A stretch of DNA of 64,000 bases from an uncultured Gemmatimonadales bacterium. Its GTDB lineage: Bacteria; Gemmatimonadota; Gemmatimonadetes; Longimicrobiales; RSA9. This document shows, in pieces, positions 1 to 9,536 of the stretch. The translations under genes were made by a program, and so were the position numbers. How positions within the stretch are numbered: the first letter of the stretch is position 1; each line of letters opens with the position of its first letter. The stretch covers positions 64,001 through 128,000 of the forward strand of contig CAWAMW010000007.1 in assembly GCA_963783305.1 (NCBI GenBank), in the 5' to 3' direction. The notes under the pieces were generated by a model that did not search any database, had not been told where the DNA came from, and saw only the letters and a list, made by a program, of their open reading frames with translations.

Positions 1-51
1 ATTCCTCGGGACCATCGACCATTGACGCGGGCTTTCCCGCTGGAGGCGCAT

Positions 52-1503
52 ATGACGTTCGTCCGAGACCTCGAGCCCCAGGCTCTCTGGAGCCACTTCG
101 ACCGCATCCTCGAAATCCCCCGCGGCTCCAAGGAAGAGGACGCCATGCGGGCGTACGTCGTGGAAGTGGCCGATCGAAACGGGCTGGACCACCAGGTGGA
201 CGGGGCCGGGAACGTCGTCGTGAAGAAACCCGCCGCCCCGGGGCACGAGGACGCCGCCGTCACCATCCTCCAGAGCCACTTGGACATGGTGAACGAGAAG
301 AATGCCGACGTGGATCACGACTTCGGCTCGGATCCCATCCGGCCCGATCGCGCGGGCGAATGGCTGAAGGCGCAGGGCACCACGCTCGGCGCTGACAACG
401 GCATCGGCGTTGCGGCCATGCTCGCCATCATGGAGGCGGACGACATCCAGCACGGCCCCCTCGAGCTCCTCTTCACCATCGACGAGGAGAGCGGGCTCAC
501 CGGCGCGGCGCAGCTGGACGGCTCGATCCTCGACGGCCGCCAGCTCCTCAACCTCGACACCGAGGAGGAGAACGCCGTCACCGTGGGTTGCGCGGGGGGC
601 GGGGACAGCCACCTGAAGCTCCCCGTCACCCGCACCGATCCACCCGCTGACGCGGCGGCCGTCACGCTCTCGCTCCGCGGCCTCAAGGGCGGCCACTCCG
701 GGATCGACATCAACCTCCAGCGCGGGAACGCCGTGCGACTCCTGGCGCGGATCCTCGAAATCGCGGGCCGCGGCGCCACGCTGCACCTGGCCGCTTTCGA
801 CGGCGGGGACAAGCACAACGCCATCCCACGCGAGTCGCGCGCTACGGTCGTCCTGCCGGCCGCGCAGGTGGAGGAGCTCCGGAAGTGCGCGCAGGACGAG
901 TTCAGCGCCATCCGGAGCGCGTTCGGGGCCGCGGAGCCGGACATGGAGATCGTCGTGGAGGAGGCCGCCGTTCCGGACGCGGTCCTGGACGAGGCCAGTA
1001 CGTGGACCGCGCTCCATCTGCTCACCGCGCTACCGCACGGCGTGGAGTCCATGAGCTACGACATCCCGGGGCTCGTGGAGACGAGCAACAACGTGGCCCG
1101 GGCCACTCTCGGGTTCGACACGCTCGAGATCCTGACCAGCACGCGCTCCTCCGTGTCCAGCGAGCTGGAGGCGCTCCGCGGCCGCATCCGCGCCATGGCC
1201 CACCTGGCCGGCGCCGACATCGAGGAGGCCGACGCCTACCCGGGCTGGAAGCCGGATCTGGGATCCCACGTCCTCCAGGTGCTCAAGGACGCGTTCGAGG
1301 AACAGCGTGGGACGGAGCCGCACGTCGAGGCGGTCCACGCGGGACTCGAAACCGGGATCATCGGCGAGAAGGTGCCCGGGATGGACATGGTCTCCTTCGG
1401 GCCCCAGATCGAGTCGCCCCACTCGCCGGACGAGCGGGTTCACATCGATTCCGTCGGACGCTTCTACACCCTCCTGCTCGGCACCCTGGAGCGGCTGGCG
1501 TAG
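52..1503 (+). CDS. pepD: Aminoacyl-histidine dipeptidase (peptidase D, M20C)
   Basis: Motifs LQSHLDMV, TTLGADNGIG, DEESG, GGHSG, HAGLE, HSPDE; GGAGG at 42-46 favours ATG 52 over ORF start 22. Confidence 0.93.
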   Translation: MTFVRDLEPQALWSHFDRILEIPRGSKEEDAMRAYVVEVADRNGLDHQVDGAGNVVVKKPAAPGHEDAAVTILQSHLDMVNEKNADVDHDFGSDPIRPDRAGEWLKAQGTTLGADNGIGVAAMLAIMEADDIQHGPLELLFTIDEESGLTGAAQLDGSILDGRQLLNLDTEEENAVTVGCAGGGDSHLKLPVTRTDPPADAAAVTLSLRGLKGGHSGIDINLQRGNAVRLLARILEIAGRGATLHLAAFDGGDKHNAIPRESRATVVLPAAQVEELRKCAQDEFSAIRSAFGAAEPDMEIVVEEAAVPDAVLDEASTWTALHLLTALPHGVESMSYDIPGLVETSNNVARATLGFDTLEILTSTRSSVSSELEALRGRIRAMAHLAGADIEEADAYPGWKPDLGSHVLQVLKDAFEEQRGTEPHVEAVHAGLETGIIGEKVPGMDMVSFGPQIESPHSPDERVHIDSVGRFYTLLLGTLERLA

Positions 1504-1625: not shown

Positions 1626-4253
1626 ATGGAACTTCGGGAAAGCGTGGTCCGGTGGGGGTGGATCCTCCCATTGGTGGCGCTCGCGCTGCTGCTCGCGGGC
1701 ACGATCTACCTGGATCGGCAGAGTCATCAGCAGCTGGAGGCGCGGCGGTCCGCCGCATCGGCGGAGGCGGAGCGGGAGGCGGCGGCACTCGCGGAGGGGA
1801 TCGCCTCGGAGGTGTCCGGACGCGTGGGCGCCCTGGCAGCCGCCAAGCTCCAGTTCACCCAGGTCGAGGACTCGCTCTCGCAGCAGACGTTCGTCGAGGC
1901 CGTGGACAGCGTCATCGGACGGCTCCCCGGCCTGATGGCGGTGTCCATCGTCTATCCCAGCGGCTGGATCGTCTCGTCCCGCATGTCCGCGCTGGACCCG
2001 CGGAGCGATCCGCTCGCGCTCCCGGACCTGAAGGCCGCGTATGCGCGGGCGGCCGCGACCCGGCAGCCCGCCGCTACACCGGTACTCCCGCTCGGCGGAT
2101 ACCGTCGCGTAGTGCTGTTCGACCCCGTTGCACCCTCCGACACCGTCCCCATCCAGGCCATGCTCATGGCCGAGATCGAGCCGCTCCCCATCCTTCGCGC
2201 CGCCCTCGAGCAGGGCGGCAAGAAGCTGAGGCCGGCCTTCTACGACCTGTTCGACCCGTCGGGCCGCCGCATTACCACCGTTCCGGCCCCGGAGGGTTGG
2301 CCGTCCGTGCGCCACGACGTGAAGGTGGCGGACACCGAATGGAGCCTGTACGTGGCGCATCAGCCGGTGAGCGAGCGCTCCTTCCTCGCCACCATCACCG
2401 CGATCCGGGTGGCGGGCGGGCTCCTGGCGGTCGCGTTCTCCCTGCTCCTGCTCCTGCTCTGGCGGATGGTGACCGCCCAGCACGGCGAGATCCGGCTCCG
2501 GCGCGTGGCGGAGACGCAGGCGCGGGAGGTGAGCGATCAGCTTCGGGCCGCACAGGAGGCGTCGCTCCGTCTGTCCGGCGCCATGGACCCGGACCGTGTC
2601 ATCGAGGAGTTCCTCGGCGCGGTGGGGGTTGAGATCGGCGCGGACGTGGGGCGGATCTACGCCTTCGAGGAGAACGGGGACGTGCTCGTGGGCCGACGGC
2701 TGATTGTGCTGGACCCGGAGCTGTGGGAGGGCGCGGGGCCCAGCGAGCACGGCTTTCGGGATGTGCGCGTCCCCCTGGGCCTGATGCCCCACCTGGCTGA
2801 GCCCGTGGCAACGGGAGAGCCCTACCTGGCGGGCCCCGAAGCCAACATTACGCCGGGGTCGGAAGGTCGACCTTCCGCCAGCTCGACCCTGGTCGTGCCC
2901 CTGGCGCTGGGCGGGAACCTGGTGGGGCTCGCGGTCTGGGAGCGGCACCGGCCGGACGGTCGCTTCGAAGACCGCGCCATTCCGTTCGCGCAGGGCGTTG
3001 CCGCGCACGCCGCCGCCGCGCTCCAGGCCGCAGAGCTCATGGATGGCGTACGGCAGGCGCGCGAGAGGGCGCACAAGGAGGCCGTTCGGCTCGCCACCGT
3101 GCTGGACCAGATGGGCGATGGCGTCATCCTCTTCGATCAGGAGGGATATCCCGAGCGCGTGAACGCCGCCGCCGAGGCACTCCTCGGCCCCGCACTCTCC
3201 GATACGCACCTCGCCGACTGGCCGGGCGTGTTTCGGATCTCGAATACCGCTTCGGCCGGGTTCCCGCCGCTGCACGCCCTCGAGGGTCGGGCGGTAGAGG
3301 ACGTCCGGCTCACCATGCGGCACCACGGGCTCGAGCGGTACCTCGCCGTTTCCGCCGCGCCGATCCGTGGAGCGGAAGACTCCGTCCGCGGTGCCGCGCT
3401 CGTGTTCCGGGACGTCACCGCCGAGCACGAGTACGCGGAGATGCTGCGGTACACCAATCAGGAGCTGCGACAGCAGGCGACGTTGCTCGAGCGCACGAAC
3501 GATGAGCTACGCGCGGCCACCGCCGCCAAGGACCAGTTTCTCGCCATGATGAGCCACGAGCTGCGCACCCCCATCAACGCCATCATCGGCTACAGCGAGC
3601 TTCTGGCACTGGGGATCCATGGTGAGCTGGGCGAGCAGCAGCAGTGGATGCTCGGACGCGTACGCGACACGTCAGGACACCTTCTCGGGCTCATCGAGGA
3701 CGTGCTCGACCTGGCCAAGATCGGCGCGGGCCGCATCGACATGGAGATCCGCGAGGTCGAGCTCGCCCCGGTGCTGGAGCGGGCCAGCGCCCAGGTGCTC
3801 CCGCTCGCCGCGGAGAAGGGGCTCAGGATCGAACGCGCCGGCGCGGCCGGGATCCGCGTCATGGCCGACGAGATGCGGCTCCTCCAGATCCTGATCAATC
3901 TCGCCTCCAACGCCGTGAAGTTCACCGAGGAGGGCGGGGTCACCGTCCGGATCCGGGAATCCGACTACCACGCGTTGATCATCGTGGAGGACACCGGCCC
4001 GGGGATTCCACCCGACCAGCTGGAGCGCGTCTTCGACGAGTTCCATCAGGTGGACTCGGGACTCGCCAGGAAGGCCGGCGGGACCGGACTCGGCCTCACC
4101 ATCTCCCGGCGTCTCGCTCGCCTCATGGGCGGCGACCTCACTGTCGAGAGCACGGTCGGTTCGGGCACCGCATTCACCGCCCACGTGCCCCTCGTCCACA
4201 GACGCCCGACGGTCGTTGATGAACCAGCGGCACGGGGCAGGGACGCGGCCTAA
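1626..4253 (+). CDS. Membrane sensor histidine kinase (periplasmic sensor, GAF, PAS, HisKA, HATPase)
   Basis: Two TM segments, SHELRTP H-box, NLASNAVKFT N-box, DTGPGI, GGTGLGL; no receiver domain. Confidence 0.92.
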   Translation: MELRESVVRWGWILPLVALALLLAGTIYLDRQSHQQLEARRSAASAEAEREAAALAEGIASEVSGRVGALAAAKLQFTQVEDSLSQQTFVEAVDSVIGRLPGLMAVSIVYPSGWIVSSRMSALDPRSDPLALPDLKAAYARAAATRQPAATPVLPLGGYRRVVLFDPVAPSDTVPIQAMLMAEIEPLPILRAALEQGGKKLRPAFYDLFDPSGRRITTVPAPEGWPSVRHDVKVADTEWSLYVAHQPVSERSFLATITAIRVAGGLLAVAFSLLLLLLWRMVTAQHGEIRLRRVAETQAREVSDQLRAAQEASLRLSGAMDPDRVIEEFLGAVGVEIGADVGRIYAFEENGDVLVGRRLIVLDPELWEGAGPSEHGFRDVRVPLGLMPHLAEPVATGEPYLAGPEANITPGSEGRPSASSTLVVPLALGGNLVGLAVWERHRPDGRFEDRAIPFAQGVAAHAAAALQAAELMDGVRQARERAHKEAVRLATVLDQMGDGVILFDQEGYPERVNAAAEALLGPALSDTHLADWPGVFRISNTASAGFPPLHALEGRAVEDVRLTMRHHGLERYLAVSAAPIRGAEDSVRGAALVFRDVTAEHEYAEMLRYTNQELRQQATLLERTNDELRAATAAKDQFLAMMSHELRTPINAIIGYSELLALGIHGELGEQQQWMLGRVRDTSGHLLGLIEDVLDLAKIGAGRIDMEIREVELAPVLERASAQVLPLAAEKGLRIERAGAAGIRVMADEMRLLQILINLASNAVKFTEEGGVTVRIRESDYHALIIVEDTGPGIPPDQLERVFDEFHQVDSGLARKAGGTGLGLTISRRLARLMGGDLTVESTVGSGTAFTAHVPLVHRRPTVVDEPAARGRDAA

Positions 4254-5431
4254 CGCCGCCGACCCCGCAGTCGCACCAGCTCGTCCACCGAGAAGACCCG
4301 TCGACGGCCGTCCTCGCTCTCGTACAGGACCCGCGTCCACCCCTGCGTCCCCACCGGGACCCACCGTCGACCGTCCGCGACCAGCGGGCGCCGCGTGACG
4401 GCGTCCCGCATCGCCTGCTCGTACAGCGAACGGGGGATCGGGCGCCACAGGTCCGGCTCCCGCCATTCGCACAGACGTCCCACGTTTTCGTACGCCGCCG
4501 GCCGGTCCTCGAGGTCCAGTAGCGATGGGTGCTTGCCGAGGATGATCCGCTCCATCAGGTCCGCCGTGTCCGGCGCCGCCACCTCCCGGATTCGCGACCA
4601 CAGCCCGGCCACGGTCACCCGCGCGATCTCCCGGAGCGACACCCGCCGCCCGTCCCGCGTCGACCAGCGGTCCTCGTGCGGCGGGGTGGCGAACGGGTTC
4701 GCCTCGAAGCTCCCCGCCTGCGCCAACCAGCCCTTTCGCGATGTGTGCGGCACCGGCGTAAGCGTGCGGAGCCGCGGAAAGCCCCGCCGCTCCACCTCCT
4801 CCAGGTCGTGCCGGTCCCACGAAGCCACCTCCTGGACCGCCGCGACGATGAGCGCCGTTGCAGCGCTCATGAGCGCCGGGTCCGGTGTGAAGTCTACCGT
4901 CACCTCCATCCGGCCCGGCCGCGGGCGGAGACCCACGCCCGTGGAACGCCTGTTCGCGGCGAAGAGCATGACCGGGAACGGGAGCATGTGGACCAGCACC
5001 CACGCCATCTCCGAGAGCCGCGCGCCGTTCCGCAGCCGCGGGAGCGAGACGTTGTAGTGCGCGCTGAAGCCCACCAGCCGCGCAGCCCGCCCGTCGCCGT
5101 CCGTCCACCGATCCAGACCCTCCCGCACCGTCGCGATTCCCTCCCAGAGGGACCGCACCACCCGCGACGGCGCCCCGCTCTCCAGCTCGATCACAGGCGT
5201 GACCAGCTCGATCACACCGGTATCGAAATACACCGCACCCGCGGTGGGCAGGTGGTAGGACGTGCCGATCCGGTGCATTGCCTCGGCACCGATGAAGGTC
5301 CGCGGGTCACCGAACGCTTCCGCCGGGTCCACCGGCTCCTCGTCCAGCAGGCAGACGAACTCCGCCTCCAGACCCACCGCCGCCCGCTCCGGCTCCTCGC
5401 TTCCGCGCCCCGCTGCCTCGTGCTTCTTCAT
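4250..5431 (-). CDS. PafA/Dop-like (GS/GCS-fold) carboxylate-amine ligase
   Basis: GLEAEF (GxExE), LPTAGAVYFD..IELVTP, SAHYNVS, RPRPGRMEVTVD; ATGA overlap with the upstream gene. Confidence 0.6.
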   Translation of the reverse strand: MKKHEAAGRGSEEPERAAVGLEAEFVCLLDEEPVDPAEAFGDPRTFIGAEAMHRIGTSYHLPTAGAVYFDTGVIELVTPVIELESGAPSRVVRSLWEGIATVREGLDRWTDGDGRAARLVGFSAHYNVSLPRLRNGARLSEMAWVLVHMLPFPVMLFAANRRSTGVGLRPRPGRMEVTVDFTPDPALMSAATALIVAAVQEVASWDRHDLEEVERRGFPRLRTLTPVPHTSRKGWLAQAGSFEANPFATPPHEDRWSTRDGRRVSLREIARVTVAGLWSRIREVAAPDTADLMERIILGKHPSLLDLEDRPAAYENVGRLCEWREPDLWRPIPRSLYEQAMRDAVTRRPLVADGRRWVPVGTQGWTRVLYESEDGRRRVFSVDELVRLRGRRR

Positions 5432-6033
5432 TGTGGCTCTTCCATGTGCTCCGGCCGCGGCACCAGCGTCAGATACCCCAGGTCCAGGTGGAGGTGGTCG
5501 AACGAGCGGCCCGGGACGTCACCCGTCGGCCGCACCCACACGCCGGCGACCGCGTCCCGGGCGATCCGGGCGTACCGCTCGATCCGGTCCAGGTCGTCCA
5601 TGCTGTCATCGCCGATCCGGTAGATGTCCGCGGCCGCCCCCCACAGATGCGGGGAGGTGTCCACCGACAGCGCGTGCGCCGGAGACCGGTAGCCGCCGTT
5701 CGCCGCGATCCGAACAGGGACACCCACCACGTCGCGGAAACGGTCCATGGCCGCCGCGAACGCCACCACCGCGCACGGCAGGTAACGCGGGAAGTCCGAG
5801 AGCGGTTCCGCTTCCCTCAGGTCCGTGTCCAGGAACTCGAACGCCCCGAAGTGCCGTGAGACCCGCGTCTCCAGCGCCGACTCCCACGACGGGATCTCGT
5901 AGAAGTACCGCGGCAGCTGCACCATCCGCCCCGCGGGATGCTGCGCCACCTCGCCCGGCCGAAGCGCGCTACGATACGACGGACCAAGACGGAGCCCGTC
6001 CACGATCCGGAGTCGCGGTCCCACGTCAGCCAT
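5428..6033 (-). CDS. Peptidase M15-like Zn metallopeptidase (D-Ala-D-Ala peptidase fold)
   Basis: GGYRS, SPHLWGAAAD (SxHxxxxAxD), HLHLD; no signal peptide. Confidence 0.75.
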   Translation of the reverse strand: MADVGPRLRIVDGLRLGPSYRSALRPGEVAQHPAGRMVQLPRYFYEIPSWESALETRVSRHFGAFEFLDTDLREAEPLSDFPRYLPCAVVAFAAAMDRFRDVVGVPVRIAANGGYRSPAHALSVDTSPHLWGAAADIYRIGDDSMDDLDRIERYARIARDAVAGVWVRPTGDVPGRSFDHLHLDLGYLTLVPRPEHMEEPQ

Positions 6034-6868
6034 CCGCCGCCTCCAGCAGGTCGCTCAGCAGCATCCGCGACACGTCCGCAATCAGGCTCCGCCGCGGCCC
6101 CGCGTCTCCCTCCTCCGACCACTCCGACAGCACCACCAGCACATACGGACGCCGACCCTCCAGATACACGATGCCGGCATCGTGCGTTACGGTGGAGATC
6201 TCCCCCGTCTTGTTCGCCACCCGCGCGCCCCCCGGCGCTCCGGCCGGGATCCCGCTCACGTACTCCTGGTCGTGCAGGATCTCCAGCATCTCCCGCGACG
6301 CCGCCGCCGACACCGCTCGCTCCTCCGCCACCGACTCCAGCAGCGTCGCCAACCCGTTCGCCGTCACCCGATTGCTGATCCCCGCCGCCCACGCCCGTTC
6401 ATCCTCCACGCCCCGACGGAACTCGAATCCACCGACCCCGTGCCGCTCCAGTGTGCCCCGGATCCCTTCCGGGCCCAGCAGCTCCACCAGCACATTCGTC
6501 GCCAGGTTGCTGCTCGTCACGATCATGTGCCGCGCCAGGTCCCGCACCCGCATGGTACGACCCACATGCCGATGCACCGCCTGGTTCCCGTCCCGCGACG
6601 ACGCCACCCGGAAATACCGGCCGTCCGCCAGGCTCGTGAACTGGTTACGCACGTGCAGCCGCGAGTTCTCTCGCAGCGATTCCCGCTCGATCGCGTCGTA
6701 GAGCCCCAGCAGCACCGCCAGCTTCATCGTGCTCGCCGCGTGAAACCACCGGTCCCCGTCGATCGCTCCGGACTCCCCCGTCTCCAGGTCCCGGTACGAC
6801 ACCGCCACCGCCGTCGCCCCGGACTCCCGCGACCGCTCCCGTATCTCCCGCTCCCGTTCCTCGTTCAT
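6026..6868 (-). CDS. Class A beta-lactamase-fold serine hydrolase
   Basis: AASTMK (SxxK), TSSNLATN (SxN), NKTG; likely start ATG 6868; no signal peptide. Confidence 0.85.
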   Translation of the reverse strand: MNEEREREIRERSRESGATAVAVSYRDLETGESGAIDGDRWFHAASTMKLAVLLGLYDAIERESLRENSRLHVRNQFTSLADGRYFRVASSRDGNQAVHRHVGRTMRVRDLARHMIVTSSNLATNVLVELLGPEGIRGTLERHGVGGFEFRRGVEDERAWAAGISNRVTANGLATLLESVAEERAVSAAASREMLEILHDQEYVSGIPAGAPGGARVANKTGEISTVTHDAGIVYLEGRRPYVLVVLSEWSEEGDAGPRRSLIADVSRMLLSDLLEAADG

Positions 6869-6959
6869 GCCGGGCGAGGCTCGCAATTCCGAGGCCCAGC
6901 AGACGACGTCCCCGATGAACCCCCCGGCCCTCGGCCCTCGCCCCTCGATTTCCCCACTC

Positions 6960-7003
6960 TTGACAGCATCTCCAGTCTTATACATCCTTCTATCCGGATA
7001 TAT
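6960..7003 (+). promoter_or_regulatory. Sigma70-type promoter with an overlapping SahR-like palindromic operator
   Basis: TTGACA at 6960-6965, weak -10 CATCCT at 17-bp spacing; palindrome ATACATCC-N8-GGATATAT at 6980-7003 reaching the ATG. Confidence 0.6.

Positions 7004-7995: not shown

Positions 7996-9536
<1,541 letters not shown>

Follow-up and report, generated by a model that had tools for sequence, protein, structure and literature searches.

A conserved three-gene cassette of Gemmatimonadota that combines two peptidase-fold proteins with a predicted PafA-like ligase and is associated with the recycling ligase gene mpl

What is the task of a beta-lactamase-fold serine hydrolase and an M15-type zinc peptidase that are encoded, seemingly without signal peptides, in one overlapping set with an amide ligase? 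The question is raised by three genes (the trio, genes 1 to 3) in a 64,000-nucleotide (nt) stretch of contig CAWAMW010000007.1 (the window), from an uncultured Gemmatimonadales bacterium (GCA_963783305.1; the source genome, G000), for which an earlier note, made from the letters alone, had put forward an undescribed system that acts on peptides in peptidoglycan precursor editing, small-peptide synthesis or protein tagging. We found that the trio is a genuine system, not described before and assembled from known folds, and we consider it probable that it acts on stem peptides, in one direction or another; more tentatively, and with some reserve, we propose that its products form a cytoplasmic module that salvages stem peptides with a gamma-glutamyl ligase and feeds the recycling ligase Mpl. 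A literature search returned no account of the cassette, nor does the accessible part of PMC12419801 give one; Iyer et al. 2009 (on amidoligases) or the supplement of PMC2588565 may list the family. The trio is laid out as follows.

6026..6868, minus strand: gene 1 (280 amino acids, aa), class A beta-lactamase-fold serine peptidase, PBP-A-like by its sequence
5428..6033, minus strand: gene 2 (201 aa), predicted M15A/LAS-fold protein with a conserved N-terminal extension
4250..5431, minus strand: gene 3 (393 aa), predicted PafA/Dop-like carboxylate-amine ligase fold, no Pfam family
6026..6033, minus strand: stop/start overlap of genes 1 and 2, 8 nt, ATGGCTGA, with GGAGG upstream
5428..5431, minus strand: overlap of genes 2 and 3, 4 nt, ATGA, read from the sequence

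Both junctions, the 8-nt ATGGCTGA and the ATGA, are as the earlier note had described them, and the trio proved to be conserved as a unit. Among 301 genomes of the phylum Gemmatimonadota, gene 3 was present in 13, and the same 13 hold a strong match to gene 2 (E<1e-50; next best 3.9e-5) and to gene 1 (E<1e-80; next best 5.8e-64); with G097, flagged as unpublished, left out, the trio is in 12 of 300. It is in none of six other members of the source genome's family. We examined 172 loci, made up of 12 from the phylum search with gene 3, 80 from genome contigs (the best of 565, nearly all with Gemmatimonadota in the title) and 80 from metagenomes (the best of 523), and in 147 of these genes 1, 2 and 3 were adjacent and in the same order. 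Elsewhere the sequence stops before gene 1, leaving genes 2 and 3 only (13 loci), or ends just short of gene 3 (nine loci), and there was a gene 2 fragment at the edge of one locus (L162) and a gene 1 in three pieces in another (L172). The single true split is L099 (467-8942), in which genes 2 and 3 are separated by 6.8 kb of unrelated genes and gene 1 is missing. The loci are not independent, the 121 complete ones reducing to 39 below 82% identity; in 117 of the 121 gene 2 starts within -11 to +10 of the gene 1 stop, and in 95 the two genes overlap by 4 or 8 nt. Gene 3 starts within the same distance of the gene 2 stop in only 40, so that overlap of genes 2 and 3 is not the rule among relatives. 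The trio is an obligate cassette, with the co-occurrence elsewhere on which the earlier note had made its proposal depend.

The gene 3 family is large and unannotated (4069 matches among 8000 candidates, at 90% clustering), and it includes a separate well-supported clade outside the phylum that has different neighbours, the nearest Atlas clusters being mostly Verrucomicrobiota; one Acidobacteriota cluster and one Ramlibacter protein were also among the relatives listed, and no match to gene 3 was found in plasmids or viral contigs. For this clade we used 34 outside-phylum loci, which were picked by GC content and identity and mostly have short flanks. A 733-aa protein (P0391) joins genes 2 and 3 in a single reading frame, a lone case that may be a read-through; a second protein (P0392), which resembles a read-through with a frameshift, was left out of account.

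A pointer to what the cassette does came from the co-occurrence with Mpl. Since a strict genome search with TIGR01081 missed the source genome's own mpl, we counted Mpl by protein search at E<=1e-85, leaving out of the count 13 genomes whose best matches (30–36% identity) were taken as MurC. By this measure a Mpl or Mpl-like gene is present in 13 of 13 trio genomes vs 19 of 288 others; the TIGR01081 cut-off was passed by 10 of the 13, and in the three below it the mpl score exceeded the murC score. In addition, mpl (TIGR01081, 444.7 bits) is the commonest neighbour of the trio, found at 44 of 92 genome loci (25 of the 35 with long flanks), 39 times downstream and five times upstream, and always on the opposite strand. 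When the five mpl-adjacent genomes were left out of one family (f5), the trio was still in three of five genomes with a Mpl-like gene and in none of 59 without, which argues against mere hitch-hiking, although kinship inflates such counts. Of the options in the earlier note, the peptidoglycan one has thus gained ground from both the co-occurrence and the adjacency. Its write/erase idea, in which the hydrolases would undo the product of the ligase, was not borne out by any of the results.

Gene 1 has the motifs that had been read in it intact (S46-T-M-K49, S119-S-N121 and K220-T-G for SxxK, SxN and KTG). It matched PF13354 (E 6.9e-48), and it scored 96.5 bits against the class A beta-lactamase model NF033103, below the cut-off of 200. 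Its closest solved relatives are 4HES, PBP-A (Thermosynechococcus, 2J7V) and 4EWF, which share with gene 1 the class A fold, the SxxK/SxN/KTG motifs and a hydrophobic residue at the Glu166 position. In gene 1 this residue, aligned to the omega-loop glutamate (Glu166 position; RWEPELN), is Val154; S46, K49, S119, N121 and V154 are invariant in 87 of 87 gene 1 rows (Val154 also in 40 of 40), and Glu155, next to Val154, is conserved. PMC12777564 describes the beta-lactamase activity of wild-type LRA-5, which likewise has Val at this position, as biologically insignificant, and PBP-A itself is described in PMC11189452 as a DD-carboxypeptidase and endopeptidase that prefers peptides with D-isoglutamine (D-iGln). 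Judged by its residues, gene 1 is PBP-A-like and not a routine beta-lactamase, since it is without a Glu166 equivalent.

Unlike PBP-A, gene 1 has no signal peptide, carries a conserved HVRNxF insertion and belongs to an obligate operon. The best 11-residue hydropathy in the first 80 residues of its longest upstream frame was 1.31, and the best for gene 2 was 0.54, as against 2.19–2.95 in all four gene 1 paralogues inspected, which carry signal peptides. Among relatives, whose N-terminal windows include sequence upstream of the start, a hydropathy of 1.6 was reached in two of 73 for gene 1 and six of 89 for gene 2. The claim that neither hydrolase has a signal peptide is borne out, and by hydropathy no upstream start adds one; because a hydrophobic signal stretch is lacking, the trio products are likely to work in the cytoplasm. 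The closest gene 1 paralogues in the phylum (40–47% identity) have the RGVED loop in common with it, and we infer that gene 1 looks like a member of a secreted family that was re-addressed to the cytoplasm. One paralogue in the source genome forms the C-terminus of an 884-aa protein with a signal peptide and an amidohydrolase domain (L175:37-2691; G000:C13).

These results also bear on the plainest explanation of the locus, in which a routine beta-lactamase and a DD-carboxypeptidase lie by chance beside an unrelated ligase-fold gene. The weak match of gene 1 to class A models and its SxxK/SxN/KTG motifs would fit this; however, the strict co-occurrence and order of the trio, the Val that replaces Glu166 in 87 of 87 rows (as in wild-type LRA-5, PMC12777564) and the lack of signal peptides on genes 1 and 2 speak against it. 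Both the co-occurrence and the motifs contradict this explanation, and it is barely credible.

Gene 2 is more diverged. It matched PF08291 at E 6.7e-4 (20.2 bits, below the cut-off of 23.2), 35 of 51 relatives matching the family at E<=0.1, and its model (predicted local distance difference test, pLDDT, 91) was closest to 1LBU, the M15A Zn D-Ala-D-Ala carboxypeptidase of Streptomyces albus G (Z 9.2, root-mean-square deviation (rmsd) 2.4, 109 residues aligned; Foldseek E 4e-3), the next 14 structural matches all being to Hedgehog or M15 proteins. Based on this model we predict an M15A/LAS fold. 1LBU is the best match by structure and by profile, and the NGGxRS...H-x6-D motif of gene 2 aligns to it; unlike 1LBU, gene 2 has its own N-terminal region, no signal peptide, and in most relatives Asn for the Asp ligand. 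The intact H-D-H motif of the earlier note holds for this copy (H129, D136 and H182, with D179 and H180 also present) and turned out to be a minority state, as 123 of 139 relatives have Asn at position 136, against 13 with Asp and three with His. In a tree of 40 rows the copies with Asp136 are scattered over six separate positions. Either histidine of the HxH may also be replaced, one of them being Gln in at least 11 of the 139. H120, H129, D179 and D184 are invariant. Gene 2 may encode a metallopeptidase of an unusual kind or a partner that binds the peptide. A cytoplasmic location is in itself nothing new for M15 enzymes, as VanX and DdpX illustrate.

Gene 3 gave no Pfam match at E<=1 and no NCBIfam match, and neither it nor its profiles matched any PDB sequence at E<=10. 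For its model (pLDDT 92) the top nine Foldseek rows were all Dop or PafA, Dop first, and in VIA comparisons PafA ranked first (4bjr_A; Z 18.9, rmsd 4.1, 331 residues aligned over residues 16–392), level with Dop (Z 18.8). The Atlas model of a relative was likewise nearer to Pup ligase, with a template modelling (TM) score of 0.67, than to GCS2, with 0.54. A profile-profile comparison with ten sequences of the Pup ligase family gave a probability of 85% and E 6e-6, five shuffles giving E>=0.2; this match is a local alignment, a global one having been unsuccessful. In a joint alignment GLEAE, YFD, ELVTP, HYN, R169, RME and W365 map onto PafA motifs, and E22, E24, D70, E75, H125, R169, R174, E176 and W365 are invariant in 93 of 93 gene 3 rows. 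The spacing from E22 to D70 is 48, as in three PafA-type proteins and unlike the 79 of three Dop-type ones (types assigned by spacing and gene order), and by this spacing the Dop loop before strand beta2 is not present in gene 3. The loop distinguishes Dop from PafA, and its deletion does not abolish Dop activity, according to PMC8599861.

Gene 3 thus shares with PafA/Dop (PF03136; 4BJR, 7OYH) the fold over residues 16–392 including the C-terminal domain, together with GhExE, YxD, E-x-x-T-P, H-x-N, two arginines and a C-terminal Trp, and with PafA the spacing without a Dop loop. Unlike these enzymes it has no PF03136 match, is only 11–13% identical and about 60 residues shorter, with a much shorter alpha-loop region, and has Glu176 for His in strand 6 and Ala66 for Arg (Arg90 of Dop); it is encoded beside two peptidase-fold genes, and those trio genomes that were searched yielded neither Pup nor a Pup ligase. 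We predict from these models that gene 3 is a PafA-type carboxylate-amine ligase and not a Pup ligase, so that the amide ligase of the earlier note would stand, sharpened by Foldseek, VIA and profile alignment to a PafA/Dop-like enzyme. One clade of gene 3 (P0127, P0128, P0130 and P0133) carries a long insertion rich in Arg and Pro just ahead of the C-terminal domain, which shows this domain to be a separable module, and more distant relatives (P0270, P0265 and P0215; 26–30% identity) include one fused to NHL repeats (P0270).

The next best fold was that of GCS2/YbdK (PF04107; 1TT4, 1R8G), with a Z of 17.6 over 260 aligned residues (10–322), 1.3 Z below PafA, and this raises the question whether the trio might instead make or turn over a small gamma-glutamyl or D-amino-acid peptide outside the wall, as GCS2-type ligases would. 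Gene 3 shares with GCS2 the core fold and the Glu in strand 6, a residue that is as in glutamine synthetase/GCS and is His in PafA (PMC2588565). The outside-phylum neighbours also fit generic peptide use, as DUF885 (19 of 34 loci), a POT transporter (10 of 34) and a class I glutamine amidotransferase-fold (C26) gene divergent from gene 1 (13 of 34) are found there, and so does the fusion of a gene 1 paralogue to an amidohydrolase in the source genome. However, the alignment to GCS2 ends at residue 322, so that the PafA-type C-terminal domain with Trp365, which gene 3 keeps, lies outside it; gene 3 has no Pfam match to that family; and where GCS2 has Ex[RK]xxD gene 3 has E176-V-T178, with Thr178 for the arginine in 93 of 93 rows. 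As a small-peptide role would also leave the 13 of 13 co-occurrence with Mpl and the adjacency of mpl unexplained, we regard it as rather unlikely.

To our knowledge, PafA and Dop are known from Pup-type protein tagging only. We looked for the components of this tagging in the phylum. The Pup ligase family (PF03136) was found in seven of the 301 phylum genomes and in none of the 13 with the trio, and Pup (PF05639) in none of the four trio genomes tested, the control genome being positive. Eight Pup-like open reading frames (ORFs) from true Pup-ligase loci had no match in the source genome or in trio loci, and small ORFs ending in G[EQ] adjoin only two of 121 trios and are unlike each other. 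Five trio genomes have one match each to the proteasome family PF00227, that of the source genome being HslV and the only one typed, and 20S proteasome subunits were not recognised in the trio genomes from these single matches. On these grounds the tagging option of the earlier note, as far as it is of the Pup type, has lost support. The true Pup-ligase-family loci with Pup-like ORFs (L185-L196) come from the seven genomes mentioned, one of which (G190) has five matches.

A ligase for a tag other than Pup, such as a stem peptide or a degenerate M15 carrier, with gene 1 removing the tag, would fit the likeness of gene 3 to PafA over its whole length including the C-terminal domain, the catalytically relaxed look of gene 2, which yet keeps invariant residues of a surface type, and the joining of genes 2 and 3 in one frame in P0391, if that is not a read-through artefact. 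Against this stand the negative searches for Pup and for mutually similar G[EQ]-ending ORFs, HslV as the sole proteasome-family gene of the source genome, and the shortfall of about 60 residues of PafA insertions in gene 3; the C-termini of the three trio proteins are not constant among relatives either, and a C-terminal Glu or Gln of a trio protein as the tag was rejected for this reason. We consider protein tagging in this wider sense quite improbable. A special form of it, a reversible peptidoglycan-fragment tag in which gene 3 would put stem peptides via gamma-D-Glu on protein lysines or on an M15 carrier and gene 1 would remove them, is very improbable.

We return to the salvage of stem peptides. 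That the trio acts on these is suggested by the fact that the closest characterised relatives of both hydrolases, PBP-A and 1LBU, do so, and by the obligate trio with its Mpl co-occurrence and adjacency, while the ligase direction is suggested by the PafA spacing of 48 and the PafA catalytic pattern of gene 3. A peptide ABC permease gene, which lies ahead of gene 1 and on its strand in 29 of 93 loci, also fits this reading. We propose that the serine of gene 1 would cut imported cell-wall peptides at their D-Ala-D-Ala ends and D-Ala cross-links, as PBP-A does, and that the product of gene 2, whose translation is coupled to that of gene 1, would bind the end of the peptide or trim it. With ATP, gene 3 would then activate the free gamma-carboxyl of a terminal D-Glu (that of L-Ala-D-Glu, for example) as an acyl phosphate and couple the D-Glu to a diamino acid, giving L-Ala-gamma-D-Glu-meso-diaminopimelic acid, which Mpl would load on UDP-N-acetylmuramic acid. 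PMC2588565 describes PafA as joining the gamma-carboxyl of a terminal Glu to an amine, and places it with two further ligase families that have other neighbours (Iyer et al. 2008).

The proposed role resembles the Mpl-LdcA recycling pathway in its cytoplasmic handling of stem peptides; unlike that pathway, the trio comes in addition to LdcA. We know of no glutamine-synthetase-fold ligase in the Mpl-LdcA pathway. The VanHAX/VanXY precursor-editing clusters likewise encode an amide ligase with cytoplasmic M15-fold peptidases, but their ligases are ATP-grasp enzymes, where the model of gene 3 has the glutamine synthetase fold, and the trio has no dehydrogenase or racemase. If true, salvage by the trio would mean new enzyme chemistry in peptidoglycan recycling, in the form of a UDP-independent gamma-D-glutamyl ligase or an amide editor, and a family with PafA architecture and no Pup would bear on the origin of the Pup ligase from small-molecule ligases; the three proteins are small and soluble.

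Several findings weigh against salvage that feeds Mpl. In the source genome mpl is on another contig, it was in none of the 34 outside-phylum loci (of which eight reach 4 kb downstream and 12 reach 5 kb upstream), and the genomes are kin, so that the Mpl and trio tallies overstate independence. As 19 Mpl-bearing genomes are without the trio, and all 13 genomes with it already possess an S66 gene of the LdcA type, the trio is dispensable for ordinary recycling. AmpG was in only six of the 13, the permease link is largely one lineage, the second zinc ligand of gene 2 is Asn in most relatives with a HxH His sometimes Gln, and in gene 3 the nucleotide-binding Arg90 of Dop is replaced by Ala. Gene 2 as a replacement of LdcA was rejected, as S66 is present in every trio genome. 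In favour of the recycling role, a gene of the same Mpl group is within 250 nt of the LdcA-type S66 gene in 10 of the 17 non-trio genomes that have both; these are all of one genus, with mpl directly beside the S66 gene in G061, G079, G124, G141, G143, G164, G199, G201, G253 and G292.

A variant that keeps the stem peptides is that gene 3 edits an amide on D-Glu and gene 1 selects the amidated form, either by a Dop-like deamidation of foreign D-isoglutamine peptides before their reuse by Mpl or by amidation without MurT/GatD. The preference of PBP-A for D-iGln is predicted in PMC11189452 to be decided by its Glu96, and pairwise alignments put the invariant Asp93 of gene 1 within about one residue of that place, although Asp93 is common to the secreted gene 1 paralogues as well. 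Dop heads the Foldseek list for gene 3, yet gene 3 is without the Dop loop, a lack that counts for less as loop deletion leaves Dop active. MurT_C was found in none of 32 genomes searched, including all 13 with the trio, and the divergent C26 gene described above would fit an amide, though it is limited to one clade. A chemical objection is that the amide of D-iGln sits on the alpha-carboxyl, whereas PafA and Dop act on the gamma-carboxyl, and we hold amide editing to be unlikely.

Around the trio in related loci, peptide ABC genes lie upstream in 29 and 24 of 93 cases, and 31 of the 93 have DUF1697 on the downstream side, all of these neighbours being lineage-bound. In the window, the following feature adjoins gene 1.

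6869..7001, no strand assigned: intergenic stretch shared with a divergent ArsR-methyltransferase gene (from sequence; Pfam for the divergent gene)

This stretch is presumed to be the promoter region of the trio; no sigma-70 consensus was found in it, nor did we see space in it for a Pup-like gene. At the other end the stop of gene 3 overlaps that of a convergent GAF/PAS histidine kinase (1626-4253) at 4250-4253, and no terminator was found between the two. A PepD-type dipeptidase gene (22-1503, plus strand; TIGR01893, 525 bits) lies two genes from the trio and was ruled out as a member, having no counterpart among the ORFs of 93 related loci. Lastly, a 7-nt unit is repeated in about five tandem copies at about 7997-8031, between the ArsR-methyltransferase gene and ahcY.

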